Shown here piece by piece: positions 35,574 through 50,182 of a stretch of DNA of 64,000 nt. The stretch lies in IMG/VR virus record IMGVR_UViG_3300008111_000003. One strand, 5' to 3'. Position numbers and translations under genes: made by a program. This DNA is from a virus. Every line of letters begins with the position of its first letter. The stretch's first letter is position 1. The notes below the pieces were generated by a model. The model had not been told where the DNA came from, did not search any database, and saw only the letters and a program-made list of their open reading frames with translations.

Positions 35574-36029
35574 CCAAAAGTATAGACCGACGTTTTTCGG
35601 GACGCTTTGACCCTCCCCCCTATGGGGGTAGAAAGTTTATCATGCGACACTATCTTAGCCTTTACTGTTTCGATGACGTTTTTTCGTCCGCGGTCGCGGA
35701 TGGTATGGATACTTGGGATGCAATCTGGTACACTCTAAACTATTTACCATAAGGAAAACTGTAGTACCCAAACCGCACGATTCGAGCCTGCCATAATGGC
35801 AGACTAGCAAATATCGTGCCAAATGCCAAAATGACAGATTAACTGCCAAAATGGCAGATGGAGCGGGCCAACTGCCAAAATGGCAGATGTAGCAAATCTT
35901 GTGCCAAATATCCTGCCAAATTGGCATAGCAAATATCGTGCCAAAGAAAAATATTTTTTCCCTTATTTTTTTTGTTTGCAATTGCCGATAAGGTATGTAT
36001 AACAGGAGTAAAGAAAGAGAGAAAGAAAA

Positions 36030-36257
36030 ATGGAAAACTCCACGAACGTCAACAGTTTTATCGGTAGCCTCCCGCGTCTGGAGAAAAAGAAGGTTTGGAA
36101 TGTAATCGACAAGGATGGTAACGTGGTTCAAGGTGTGAGTGCCACCGATAATCGCAAGAGTACGGCAGCCGAGTACATTGCCAAAAAGTATCCGGGCATG
36201 TACTTTACGCTTATGTTCTCACACTGTAAGAATGAAAGGGTCGCCGTTAGTCGGTGA
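36030..36257 (+). CDS. Hypothetical protein
   Basis: Follows the promoter at 35976; purine-rich leader. Confidence 0.65.
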   Translation: MENSTNVNSFIGSLPRLEKKKVWNVIDKDGNVVQGVSATDNRKSTAAEYIAKKYPGMYFTLMFSHCKNERVAVSR

Positions 36258-36265
36258 ATAGTAAC

Positions 36266-36415
36266 ATGACAATTCAAGTCCAAAATACGCTTAGTCGATT
36301 GGTCGCCCGTCATGGATATTCGGCTACGTTTGTTCGACACTTGGGCGAAGGTATAAGTCTGTATAGTATCGGCGGTATTATGTATCGTATTCGTGGTGAT
36401 GGTAATATCATTTAG
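36266..36415 (+). CDS. Small hypothetical protein (49 aa)
   Basis: MTIQVQNTLSRL...; fills the operon gap. Confidence 0.5.
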   Translation: MTIQVQNTLSRLVARHGYSATFVRHLGEGISLYSIGGIMYRIRGDGNII

Positions 36416-36429
36416 TAAAAGGAATAGAA

Positions 36430-36657
36430 ATGAAACTTTCGCAACTCATCAAGACCCTGCAAGCCGCACAAAATCGCCTTGGCGATGTGCCTGTAAATCT
36501 CATGGATGAGGAAGCCGGTAGGTGGCATCCCGTTGCGGAAGTGGTGAAACTCCACCCGTACACTGGGCCGCATGGCTGTGCGAATCGCGACGAGCCAGCG
36601 AACGCCGTCGGGCTTCATAGGCTCGGAGGAAGCCCCAGCGACTTGGTGATTGGCTAA
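36430..36657 (+). CDS. Hypothetical protein
   Basis: AAGGA RBS; MKLSQLIKTLQ...GDVPV common phage N-terminus. Confidence 0.65.
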   Translation: MKLSQLIKTLQAAQNRLGDVPVNLMDEEAGRWHPVAEVVKLHPYTGPHGCANRDEPANAVGLHRLGGSPSDLVIG

Positions 36658-36767
36658 CGTACTATCGTGCCGATTGCTTGTTGCATTGCAAATGCTGAAA
36701 GAATTAGGATATTTGCCAGAGTATGATAGACTGATCGAGAAGTTTATTACAGAAAAGGAATAGTAAC

Positions 36768-37013
36768 ATGATTCTTTCTGGTATGGTTGTGGATAGTAAG
36801 GTGCCGGTTTATAGTTATGATTGGCTTTGCCAAAAGATGATGGATAGGGGGCGTGTTGCAATCGTGCTACATGATCCACAGGGGGCTATCATTCGTGGTA
36901 TTATAAATGGCATTCGGCCCGAGGATGGTAGCGGACGACACTGGCTTGTTACTATTTGTGATAACAGTGTTATGCCGAGTGTTACTAATGAAGTATATGT
37001 TAGAACAGCATAG
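36768..37013 (+). CDS. Hypothetical protein
   Basis: AAAGGA RBS. Confidence 0.6.
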   Translation: MILSGMVVDSKVPVYSYDWLCQKMMDRGRVAIVLHDPQGAIIRGIINGIRPEDGSGRHWLVTICDNSVMPSVTNEVYVRTA

Positions 37014-37286
37014 TAATATTACTGTAACAGCCGATCCTATCGGCTGACATAATGGCAGTAGCCAGCCAAAACGGCAGCCAAGCTGCCAAAATGGCAGGCG
37101 CCGCGCGCCAACTGCCAAAATGGCAGGCGCTGCAAATTTCATGCCAAAAATAAAATATTTTTTCGGCACACTTTTTGCACGAGCAAATCCTATGCCAAAA
37201 ATAATCTTTTTCCCTCTAATTTTTTCCAGTTGACATTGCCGATACTAAATGTAGACTTAGGGAAAGAAAGCAAGAGGAGAAAGAAA

Positions 37287-47495: not shown

Positions 47496-47505
47496 CTATT
47501 CTTAG

Positions 47506-47593
47506 ATTGAGTGCAATACGGTGGGACGTATATCTATTATAGGAATTTATTCCTTCTTCTTTTCTATAATCGGTTCGAATCCGATCACTCAAT
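47506..47593 (+). ncRNA. tRNA-like element / pseudo-tRNA
   Basis: ATTGAGTG/CACTCAAT stem and a perfect T-arm ATCGG-TTCGAAT-CCGAT, but no canonical anticodon arm. Confidence 0.55.
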
Positions 47594-47599
47594 TTTATT

Positions 47600-48103
47600 A
47601 TGAACATGAATATTCTTGAAGGTAGAATTGAAGATATTCGTCGCACAGAAAGTGGCGATATTATTCAAGGCTCTAGCCACACCTGCCACGTTCTGAATCA
47701 CAAGATTCGTAATAAGATTATTATCAAGGCTGTTTGTGATCTAAGAAAAATTAAAGACCAGTTTGATAGTATCGCCTGCTGCGGTGTAAGTGGTTTGATG
47801 GTGGTTCCACAGATTGCTGAACTACTTGATAAACATATTATCGTAGTACGAAAGGCAGGCGAAAAATGCTATTCCGAGTTTCGTACAGAGGGAGTTGCCC
47901 CTTTTCGATATGTAATATTAGACGATTTAATTTGTTCTGGAAATACTATTAATCGTATTACCTCAGTAATTAAAAGTGAATACCCACGAGCCAGACCAAT
48001 TGGCGTATATTGCTATCTGCCTAAAGAAACAGTTTATTCACCAGATAAAAATGGTAGCAAATATTGTGAGCAAGAATTAGGGATGCCGCTCCTGAATATC
48101 TGA
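47600..48103 (+). CDS. Type I phosphoribosyltransferase
   Basis: PRPP loop YVILDDLICSGNT; IIVVRK. Confidence 0.85.
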   Translation: MNMNILEGRIEDIRRTESGDIIQGSSHTCHVLNHKIRNKIIIKAVCDLRKIKDQFDSIACCGVSGLMVVPQIAELLDKHIIVVRKAGEKCYSEFRTEGVAPFRYVILDDLICSGNTINRITSVIKSEYPRARPIGVYCYLPKETVYSPDKNGSKYCEQELGMPLLNI

Positions 48104-48241
48104 CTGCCAAAATGGCAGGGAGCGCGGCCGATCTGCCAAATTGGCAGGATTTTTTTTTCAAGGCTGGGCTGTTGACAACCCGATATCATACTGTAGAATC
48201 AGCGTATCGGAACGAGAATCATAAACACGAAAGGGTTTAAA

Positions 48242-49207
48242 ATGGCTCATGCTATCGAAAATATGAACGGTAAAGATTGTATGTTTTATGTTGACGAAGT
48301 GCCGTGGCATGGCCTGGGTCAGAAATTGGAAAAAAACCCATCTATTAGTGAGGCTATGGACGCTGCTGGTCTAAATTGGGAAGTGGGTACTAAACCTCTC
48401 TTTACGGCTGAAGGCGAAGAAGTAAATGCACAAGCGACTTTTCGTAAAACAGACAATAGAGTTCTAGGAGTTGTTGGACCTCGTTATACTCCTCTTCAAA
48501 ATAAGGATGCTTTCGATTGGTTTCAGCCATTCTTGGACGCTAAAGAGTGTGAACTTCATACAGCCGGCTCACTCCATAATGGAGAAAAGGTATGGGTTCT
48601 TGCAAAATTGAATCGTGATAATTGTGAAATTGTTAAGGGTGATGAAACTGCTAAGTTTATTTTGTTGAGTAATAGTCATAATGGTACTACCGCTATTAGA
48701 GTTGGATATAGTTTTATTCGTGTAGTTTGTGCTAATACATTATCTTTTGCTCATTCTGATAAGAAAAATAAATTGTTGCGTATTCGTCATACTCGTTCTA
48801 GTAAAACTAATCTTGATAATGTTCGTGATATTATGGATAATATTAATGCTGGATTTGAGGCCACTGCGGAACAATATCGATTTTTGGCTAGTAAAAGTTT
48901 CAATCAAAAAGATATTCAAGCCTATGTTAAGATGGTAGTTGGTGTTGAAAAGACTCCAGATGAGGATATTAAAAAGCGTACACGTAATATTATGGATGAA
49001 ATTATGAAACTTATTGAGGGACCAAAACAGAGTGCGACAAATGTACGCGGTACTTGGTGGGCAGCATGGATGGGATATAATGAATATCTTAATTATAACA
49101 AGGGTCGTACAGCAGATAATCGTATTGATTCTTTGTGGTTTGGTCAAAATGGTAATGAAAATGAATATGCTTTTGAAAAAGCCATAGAGTTTGCTAACGC
49201 AGTATAG
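48242..49207 (+). CDS. DUF932 / TIGR03299 phage-plasmid protein
   Basis: MAH...PWHGLG...YTPLQN...TAGSL...NSH.G...IRVVCANTL. Confidence 0.9.
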   Translation: MAHAIENMNGKDCMFYVDEVPWHGLGQKLEKNPSISEAMDAAGLNWEVGTKPLFTAEGEEVNAQATFRKTDNRVLGVVGPRYTPLQNKDAFDWFQPFLDAKECELHTAGSLHNGEKVWVLAKLNRDNCEIVKGDETAKFILLSNSHNGTTAIRVGYSFIRVVCANTLSFAHSDKKNKLLRIRHTRSSKTNLDNVRDIMDNINAGFEATAEQYRFLASKSFNQKDIQAYVKMVVGVEKTPDEDIKKRTRNIMDEIMKLIEGPKQSATNVRGTWWAAWMGYNEYLNYNKGRTADNRIDSLWFGQNGNENEYAFEKAIEFANAV

Positions 49208-49225
49208 AGAGTTAGAAGATATAAA

Positions 49226-49768
49226 CTAGAGATCGTCGCTCAATGAAAATTGGGCGGCGATTTCTGTTTTTAGATTTGGAAATAATTCTAACACTAAACT
49301 ATATAGTTCTTGTTTAGTAGGTGGTTTTTTACTAAGAGTTTTAGTTCCAGCATGAATTTTTCTGTGACAATTAGCGCATACAACAACACATTTAATCATT
49401 TCTTCTATAGATTTTTTAAATGTATGTATAGAATGTACTCTTTTTTCTAAAGCTTTTTGATCTATATGGTGATAATCCAAACATTCTATATCACAAACTC
49501 CACAATCGCATGGATTTCTTTGTAAATAAATTTGTTTAAATAATTTAACTTTATTATAGAGTTGTTTATTATATTCGTTTTTTTTAAATGGATTTTTCTG
49601 CCTCCATTTTTTAGCACATTGTTTTGGAATATCGCTTTTTAAGCGATATCTTTTATGCTTTTTTTTAGCACATTCTTTACAATCCCAAGATAAACCATCT
49701 TTTTTATGAGAGTCCTTATAAAAATTATCTATCGAATATTCATGCTTACATTTGCCACATTTTTTCAT
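49226..49768 (-). CDS. HNH homing endonuclease
   Basis: KKCGKC...CKEC N-terminus; LDYHH...KCVVVCANCHRKIH; the only antisense gene called in the right arm. Confidence 0.85.
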   Translation of the reverse strand: MKKCGKCKHEYSIDNFYKDSHKKDGLSWDCKECAKKKHKRYRLKSDIPKQCAKKWRQKNPFKKNEYNKQLYNKVKLFKQIYLQRNPCDCGVCDIECLDYHHIDQKALEKRVHSIHTFKKSIEEMIKCVVVCANCHRKIHAGTKTLSKKPPTKQELYSLVLELFPNLKTEIAAQFSLSDDL

Positions 49769-50182
49769 AGTATTGTCTCCTACTGGTATATATGAGAATA
49801 CACCAAAAATATAGAAAATGCCAAAATGACAGGCTGGCCGCGGCGCATGCCAAAATGGCAGTCAACTCAAATTTGTTAAAGATTATATCTTCTACTATTG
49901 CAACAAGCCCCCATGAGCCGATATAATGGAAGGACCGGGTGATTGCTACTACTAGGAAAAGGAGGAAGATTGGAATATTTTATTGTATTAGGAATAATTT
50001 TTTATTTTTGTTGTTGCTCTCAAAATGATTAGTCCATAGTTTTTGTCTCAGCCCATGCTGTCTGTTTGCTGCCGTTGCTGTTAGTCAGCGAAAAAGAGAA
50101 GGTCTTTACTAAGAGTATTGTAACACGGTGCTAGCATGGTATAATGGTTCTGGAAACCCATAGTTATGCAGAAGGGAATTTA

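Follow-up and report, generated by a model that had tools for sequence, protein, structure and literature searches.

A 44-bp double palindrome at early-cassette borders in a group of large uncultured phages: a putative protein docking site on duplex DNA

The 64,000-nt stretch of viral DNA held as IMG/VR record IMGVR_UViG_3300008111_000003 (hereafter the window) is divided between its two strands. Up to 34.6 kb, the minus strand carries structural genes, among them the portal, the large terminase and an open reading frame (ORF) of 2020 amino acids (aa), and from 34.8 kb on the plus strand carries small early genes and six tRNAs. Dispersed through the early part are twelve copies of a 44-bp unit, composed of the palindrome CTGCCA-N3-TGGCAG, a 14-nt spacer, and the same palindrome again. 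A scan of the window with this pattern at ≤3 mismatches gives 12 matches (0 expected), each with a period of 29 bp from start to start, and the 15-mer CTGCCANNNTGGCAG is present in 18 exact copies, with none in 100 shuffles. We give an even chance to the reading developed below, in which the unit is the distal part of an early cassette of the promoter-early stem-loop (PeSL) kind and a putative protein docking site on duplex DNA. The units, the single palindromes around them and the neighbouring boxes are as follows.

35843–35886, plus strand: double palindrome 1, exact; in an array with the single palindromes at 35788, 35823 and 35913.
37083–37126, plus strand: double palindrome 2, exact; preceded by the single palindromes at 37044 and 37063.
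37888–37931, plus strand: double palindrome 3, exact; -35 box at 37960, 28 bp on.
38854–38897, plus strand: double palindrome 4, exact; ahead of one sigma54-like box, with an A/T tract and a promoter near 38950 beyond it.
39417–39460, plus strand: double palindrome 5, 1 mismatch; -35 box at 39474, 13 bp on.
40568–40611, plus strand: double palindrome 6, arms exact, loops TCT and AAT; -35 box at 40636, 24 bp on, driving a non-coding stretch.
42648–42691, plus strand: double palindrome 7, 3 mismatches; 2 nt after a stop codon; -35 box at 42717, 25 bp on.
43726–43769, plus strand: double palindrome 8, 1 mismatch; -35 box at 43792, 22 bp on; homology blocks with 12 relatives begin here.
44341–44384, plus strand: double palindrome 9, exact; 10 nt after tRNA-Arg; -35 box at 44409, 24 bp on; left joint of the GP88-like cassette.
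45579–45622, plus strand: double palindrome 10, 1 mismatch; TAA of the first loop is the stop of ORF 45339–45587; right joint of the GP88-like cassette.
48104–48147, plus strand: double palindrome 11, exact; abuts a TGA stop; -35 box of the DUF932 gene at 48172, 24 bp on.
49818–49861, plus strand: double palindrome 12, degenerate, 3 mismatches; in a divergent gap; TTGCAA-N18-TATAAT promoter at 49898, 36 bp on.
35788–35802, plus strand: single palindrome, exact, loop TAA.
35823–35837, plus strand: single palindrome, 2 mismatches; 20 bp ahead of pair 1.
35913–35927, plus strand: single palindrome, 1 mismatch; between two sigma54-like boxes, a "long module" layout that recurs in relatives.
37044–37077, plus strand: single palindromes at 37044 and 37063, with 1 and 2 mismatches; phased 19–20 bp from pair 2.
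35806–35821, 35891–35906, 35928–35943, 37131–37146, 37182–37197 and 38901–38916, minus strand: six TGGCAY-N5-TTGCW boxes, interleaved with palindromes, at the first early modules only.

The sequence-only reading from which this analysis started had described twelve pairs at an invariant 29 bp, and the pattern scan returned exactly these. Its further claim of extra single copies phased 19–20 bp apart was borne out by a single-palindrome scan at ≤2 mismatches, which places five of them at 35788, 35823, 35913, 37044 and 37063. That scan yields 30 sites, 29 of them within 35788–49861; the sole site outside, at 24630, is likely a chance match, and the earlier statement that none lies beyond 35.7–49.9 kb holds to this extent. 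At the first early promoters, pairs and singles form arrays of 4–5 palindromes at 19–21, 29 and 41 bp spacing, interspersed with boxes that contain the TGCCAAA half-site too, in an order that recurs in relatives. The element-bearing part of the window has a G+C content of 35–47%, against 31–39% elsewhere. The hexamers CTGCCA and TGGCAG are not avoided in the rest of the window, where their counts equal the Markov expectation.

Apart from the tenth, which contains its stop codon, and the twelfth, each unit begins 0–32 nt past a stop codon or tRNA, as read from the sequence. The units had been placed between a gene end and the next transcription unit; this stands for most copies, which follow a stop codon or tRNA (the unit at 44341 follows tRNA-Arg), and fails for the one at 49818 in a divergent gap. 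Downstream of every unit lies a promoter of early type, consisting of TTGACA, a 16–17-nt spacer that holds CCGATA, and TGTAGAAT. In the five units for which a distance of 22–25 bp between second palindrome and -35 box had been reported, remeasurement gives 24, 25, 22, 24 and 24 bp, with an A-run and a T-run resembling an upstream promoter (UP) element in between. The gap in the remaining units is 13, 28, 36, 52, 56 or ~100 bp, and the long gaps are occupied by boxes of the form AGCAAAT-N4-GTGCCAAA and one further single palindrome. Across the family, the main class has its -35 box 23–25 bp after the unit, behind an A/T tract. In the commonest module, the palindromes have their centres at about -67 and -96 relative to the following early promoter, a position that is also the 3' end of the previous transcription unit.

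The loop of the first palindrome often reads TAA or TAG (CTG CCA TAA), as at 35788 and 45579 and in the relatives G006, G008, G009 and G010. The element may often supply the stop codon of the upstream ORF in this manner; an in-frame stop is confirmed for unit 10, whose TAA had already been noticed. The promoter at 40636, behind unit 6, leads into ~800 nt (40680–41470) with no gene led by a ribosome-binding site. Parts of 40772–40920 within this stretch are 82–86% conserved in relatives, and it has no Rfam match.

The exact pair occurs in 73 stretches in ~50 IMG/VR contigs, all from relatives of the window phage with 70–87% nucleotide identity in terminase, portal and neighbouring genes. Complete genomes of this group measure 150–224 kb and contain 8–17 units each, in a single orientation and all within one early segment of 14–20 kb. 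PHROGs recognises the portal and the terminase only, and neither megablast with the region nor tblastn with the portal against 50,697 phage records gave a cultured relative. The phage is common in lake metagenomes, with runs of ~15 studies holding the stretch in whole or in part and 14 runs holding at least half of the sampled words. A scan for the pair in 185,579 prokaryote species genomes gave a single match, on a 1.8-kb contig of a metagenome-assembled genome that resembles phage DNA; the suggestion that the element might be a decoy for a host regulator or partition protein is not supported by this distribution. The literature search returned no paper containing CTGCCANNNTGGCAG, nor did a general search reveal any closely similar phage repeat.

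Among 235 distinct copies of the CTGCCA unit (type 1), the arms are conserved at 0.84–1.00, with the last base at 0.76, conservation being lowest in the 3' arm of the second palindrome. The loops are A at 0.87–0.95 on one strand only, and a crude ORF call makes this the sense strand in 160 copies and the antisense strand in 8. Bases +1 to +6 after the unit are also A-rich. The spacer is different: 192 distinct sequences were counted, yet they are G+C-rich, with C22 and G23 conserved at ~0.8. Spacers of the window units are likewise G+C-rich, and the CCGC/GCGG core attributed to them earlier extends to the relatives, in which the central four bases are CCGC, GCGG, GCGC or CCGG in 165 of 234 distinct copies. 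One lineage has CTAC, GTAC or GTAG at this position, and the dyad centre is accordingly CG or TA. In loci fetched by protein homology, the loop measures 3 nt in 112 of 113 cases and the inner spacer 14 nt in 65 of 72; the fixed spacing is no artefact of the search, since these loci were not selected by the pattern.

Compensatory change was counted by requiring one palindrome of a unit to be exact and reading its partner without bias. Of the 185 deviating arm pairs obtained, 6 are compensated, 17 form G-U pairs in the sense transcript, 58 form G-U pairs in the antisense only and 104 are mismatched on both strands. Conservation here concerns the words and the distances between them, without compensation.

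The arm words themselves differ between lineages. Through the DUF932 protein (48242–49207; 66–80% identity) we fetched 68 loci, only ~17 of which contain CTGCCA units. Most of the others have, in the orthologous slot, a unit composed of CCTAAGTCCTT, loop, AAGGACTTAGG, a G+C-rich core, GTAAGTCCTT, loop and ACTTAGG (type 2). Its spacing is equally fixed, with ACTTA-N27-GTAAGT in 105 of 110 copies, and type-2 units are also restricted to the early segment. The type-2 consensus between the arms is dyad-symmetric and shows no covariation, because its R and Y columns vary independently (one pair gives GT 21, AC 19, GC 14 and AT 12). The design thus recurs in related lineages with other arm words (AAGGACTTAG, AAGGGTTTAC), and lineages beyond type 2 have AAGGGTTTAG or AAGGGTTTAC with GCAAACCCTT. 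Within a genome, the arm word is common to all copies, with uncompensated scatter. In its core proteins, the window phage is equally close to type-2 and to other type-1 genomes, so that a change of arm word must have occurred among close relatives. In one relative (L140, 938–5811), hybrid modules join a type-2 first hairpin and G+C core to a GTGCCAAA box that replaces the second hairpin; in each of the four copies read, the GC of the core falls where a sigma54 -12 element would.

Comparison of gene content between elements in relatives revealed that the units are joints where cassettes are gained, lost and moved, as all copies share their arms in direct orientation. Starts of blastn homology blocks pile up at 35842, 37083, 37885–37888, 38854, 39417, 42648, 43724–43726, 44339–44341 and 45579, and block ends at 37931, 38897, ~40611 and 42645. 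Short blocks that extend from the very start of a unit as far as the start codon, for example 37885–38018 and 44340–44464, link non-orthologous modules. One cassette has demonstrably moved: in the relative L066, a single unit stands between tRNA-Arg and the sequence found downstream of unit 10 in the window. This unit joins what are units 9 and 10 in the window, and the 1.2-kb GP88-like cassette is therefore absent from that position; its promoter and gene sit elsewhere in L066, behind another unit that also carries a box. The proposal that the elements delimit shuffled gene cassettes is upheld by both the block ends and this move. The role as a cassette joint is the best-supported part of our interpretation, and it is compatible with every reading considered here.

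In the reading that we put at even chances, the cassette would be ordered as element, UP-like A/T tract, near-consensus sigma70 promoter, leader and start codon, and a multimeric, sequence-specific protein, encoded by the phage or its host, would dock on the duplex unit. Such a protein would read four TGGCA(G) half-sites with centres 9, 20 and 9 bp apart, in a fixed geometry about a stiff, G+C-rich core whose dyad falls on a CG or TA step. Once bound, it may tune the next promoter and/or part tandem units as an insulator or roadblock. Recognition of duplex DNA by a protein is preferred because the words are invariant without compensation, the spacing is exact while the spacer sequence is free, the sites are arrayed and the words are lineage-specific and common to all copies of a genome. 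The more specific proposal of cooperative binding by two dimers is plausible and would be our preferred form of this reading; it fits the invariant arms and spacing, the lack of compensation and the arrays of up to five sites, and is strained by the polar loops, the helical register and the failure to find a matching binding protein.

Several observations weigh against docking on duplex DNA, or against its simplest form. The period of 29 bp corresponds to ~2.8 helical turns, which does not suit a simple symmetric-dimer model, and polar AAA loops are not demanded by a symmetric dimer. These loops, together with the position at gene ends and the terminators found in the same slot of some relatives, favour a strand-specific or terminator-like role. 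The distance from unit to -35 box has no 10–11 bp periodicity once the 21–26 bp class is removed. About nine strong early promoters of the window have no unit; among those inspected in the sequence, several reach into the end of the gene before them. At loci L098 and L100, a plain hairpin with a T-run terminator occupies the same slot upstream of the DUF932 promoter. The two arm types differ in half-site length and spacing, which makes a single protein family of fixed geometry unlikely, and a co-evolving phage factor is not evident, given the closeness of core proteins to both types.

The search for a reader protein adds to these points. No DNA-binding protein that tracks the arm type was found with Pfam and PHROGs, and a comparison of type-1 with type-2 genomes (two of each, plus the window) turned up no convincing type-specific DNA-binding protein, only small ORFs to which no function can be assigned; such ORFs, and overlapping frames from a pair of very similar genomes, made up most of the lists. 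Four small proteins of the window (55013, 56018, 58800 and 59039) are shared with type 1 only and have no DNA-binding signature. Within the early region, Pfam and PHROGs detect no DNA-binding proteins other than a 66-aa helix-turn-helix (HTH)-like protein (34817–35014) and, on the other strand, a protein resembling sigma70 region 2. The HTH-like protein was rejected as the reader: its five type-2 orthologues are 48–64% identical, no less than those of type 1. An orthologue occupies the same position in L123.

An unlikely alternative places the function in the sense transcript, where one or two hairpins would end, process or protect the 3' end of the early unit. The RNA would fold either as two small hairpins or as one nested hairpin with 6 outer bp, an A-rich 3×3 internal loop, 6 inner bp and a few spacer pairs, and its reader may be a sequence-specific RNA-binding factor or RNA polymerase itself. 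The position just past stop codons or tRNA and the polarity of the loops, which matches the direction of transcription, suit this role. So do the predicted folding energies, which range from -17 to -32 kcal/mol in 11 of 12 units, mostly well below shuffles, the ordinary terminators in the slot of L098 and L100, and the stem-loops of PeSLs, which have been taken as terminators (PMC4122927). Four RNA runs contain short contigs of the region (~200–800 nt) at low depth, and none of the 32 metatranscriptome pieces listed bridges an element, which with contigs this short is no more than a weak hint in the same direction and proves nothing.

Intrinsic termination and structural conservation argue the other way. 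A hairpin plus T-run scan passes only the second palindromes of units 6, 9 and 11 (3/12); the other nine units have no T-run 0–2 nt after the hairpin, and A-rich bases follow the unit instead. The arm changes are uncompensated (6/185 pairs, with independent columns in type 2), which is not the pattern of a structured RNA, and Rfam finds no family other than tRNA in the window. Neither the constant apical length, 14 nt in type 1 and 27 nt in type 2, nor the arrays of 4–5 palindromes are explained by a hairpin; several hairpins in a row are unnecessary for termination. The weakest conservation falls on the second palindrome's 3' arm, and the phage has ordinary terminators elsewhere, near 35048–35080 (by eye, after the first early gene), at 49227 and at 51441.

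We consider it improbable that the unit is a passive recombination joint with no trans-acting reader, its arms serving as short homologies for exchange of the PeSL type and for mini-circles, and the pattern arising as a by-product of these exchanges. Homology blocks that begin or end at units, the cassette moved in L066 and the stop codons that the first loop (TAA or TAG) may often supply are in keeping with such a joint. A further observation of this kind comes from an RNA-library contig (run X16) that skips 370 nt (39774–40145) between the early-promoter repeats TTGACAA..GCCGAT at 39769 and 40079; it is from a strain or molecule without that one-gene cassette. Passive exchange leaves the retained spacer length, the G+C richness and the CG/TA centre without account despite total turnover of sequence, and gives no reason for the constant AAA loops. 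The spacers would be homogenised too, and arms of 6–15 bp are very short for homologous exchange.

The boxes between the palindromes raise the question of sigma54. Read antisense, they have the form TTTGGCAY-N4-ATTTGCT, which fits TGGCAC-N5-TTGCW exactly; across five genomes that include both arm types there are 4–6 per genome, always antisense and only at the first early modules, with one in G001. They have the TGCCAAA half-site in common with the type-1 arms. A TGGTAT variant lies at 35204–35224. Modules with more upstream boxes have weaker core promoters, the -35 score falling from 5.7 to 4.8; this speaks for docking of a protein on the duplex, but is a trend only, as the copies are not independent. 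Were TGGCAG of the unit the -24 element and the core GC 10 bp on the -12 element, on either strand, the site might dock host holoenzyme as a silent closed complex (roadblock) or as an activator-dependent start, in concert with the nearby boxes. A GC is present at the right distance, on one strand, in 77% of units; this excess over column shuffles (69.5%) is small, and 23% of units have no GC there. The -12 region would moreover read CCGC or GCGC in place of TTGC, sigma54 promoters are not back-to-back palindromes, and TGGCA is absent from type-2 arms. The phages encode no Sigma54_DBD and no convincing bacterial enhancer-binding protein, with one weak AAA+ match. We regard a sigma54-type site as very doubtful.

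That the unit is a crossover site for a site-specific recombinase, or a folded site resembling integron attC, is scarcely credible: hix and gix sites measure ~26 bp, similar to the inner TGGCAG-N14-CTGCCA dyad of 26 bp with its palindromic central dinucleotide, and the units bound cassettes, but neither Resolvase (PF00239) nor Phage_integrase (PF00589) has a match in five complete genomes whereas control genomes are positive, spacer differences between copies would block exchange, and the inner region is G+C-rich rather than A/T-rich. Two further candidates were set aside. A CRISPR-like mini-array is ruled out by size (15-nt repeat, 14-nt spacer) and by the composition-constrained spacers, and Z-DNA in the spacer by cores that are mostly not alternating purine and pyrimidine.

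Other genes around the units were also noted. At the border between late and early genes stands a divergent pair, 34019–34624 (minus strand), a 201-aa protein with a weak match to sigma70 region 2, and 34817–35014 (plus strand), the HTH-like protein; both proteins are kept in all lineages examined, and the terminator near 35048–35080 follows the latter. A small zinc-ribbon protein (DCCG...CxxCxEHCE) is encoded at 37287–37433 in the window, at 1260–1658 in L098 and at 2677–2856 in L123, among the first early genes of three lineages that differ in element type. The early protein at 43352–43714 contains a ribosomal L7/L12 C-terminal domain (Pfam E = 5e-07). The large terminase ORF (28995–32051, minus strand) encodes 1018 aa and also matches PHROGs of DnaB/primase type; its homology with relatives is interrupted from 30740 to about 31781, as would be expected of an inserted element.

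Most of the unknown and fast-changing genes of large phages lie in their early regions, and the control and shuffling of these genes are known in outline only for T4-like phages, through PeSLs. In the phages described here, the stem-loop component takes the form of a rigid module that is specific in sequence and to the lineage. If a protein reads the unit, that protein would give access to the control of early genes in a phage group not yet cultured, and the swapping of words would be a natural experiment in which a protein and its many sites co-evolve. Tentatively, we extend the argument to a lineage-specific "address word" (W'-W / G+C core / W'-W) that would mark early-cassette borders in a group of large uncultured freshwater phages; it might be read by a new kind of putative DNA-binding factor with specificity switched repeatedly between close relatives, the same complex insulating tandem promoters and setting the sites of exchange. 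In metagenomic phage contigs, the unit can further serve in practice to locate early regions and the borders of cassettes.

Among known systems, PeSLs are the closest. In T4-type phages, they consist of a stem-loop, an A/T-rich tract, a sigma70-like early promoter, a Shine-Dalgarno sequence and a start codon, and are present in many copies in the plastic early region, beside insertions, deletions and replacements (PMC2839356, PMC4122927). Short stems of loose definition (such as G-run, loop, C-run) are typical of them and are taken as plain terminators (PMC4122927). The order of element, A/T tract, sigma70 promoter, leader and start codon was read in all 12 units of the window, and the 8–17 copies per genome likewise occupy an early segment of 14–20 kb at sites of indels and replacements. 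In contrast to PeSLs, the element here is a 44-bp double palindrome with invariant arms, fixed spacings of 3 nt and 14 nt and a G+C-rich core, its arm words are lineage-specific with no compensatory change, and the phage is not T4-like, its portal having no match among the 50,697 phage records.

A comparison can also be drawn with rho-independent terminators, which resemble the unit in having a stable G+C-containing hairpin right after a stop codon and which occupy the same slot in relatives; they differ in that 9 of 12 units have no T-run, the conserved property is arm sequence rather than pairing, and the length of the "loop" is fixed. Promoter P1 of ribosomal RNA genes combines a near-consensus promoter, a 16-bp spacer and a UP tract with two or more 15-bp dyad Fis sites ~30 bp apart, starting from near -70. 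The early cassettes share the promoter, the UP-like tract and paired 15-bp dyads in a similar upstream position, but the unit misfits the Fis consensus (G and C at ±7 are reversed), and about half of the early promoters have no sites. The stoperators of cluster A mycobacteriophages, bound by the L5 gp71 repressor, are 13-bp asymmetric single sites spread genome-wide in temperate phages, in tens of intergenic copies with one orientation relative to transcription and with motifs that differ between lineages, and they act on elongating polymerase. Dispersed intergenic copies, a single orientation and lineage-differing motifs are common to both systems, whereas the stoperator repressor is known and the sites described here are palindromes in pairs, restricted to the early part of the genome in large phages that appear to be lytic.

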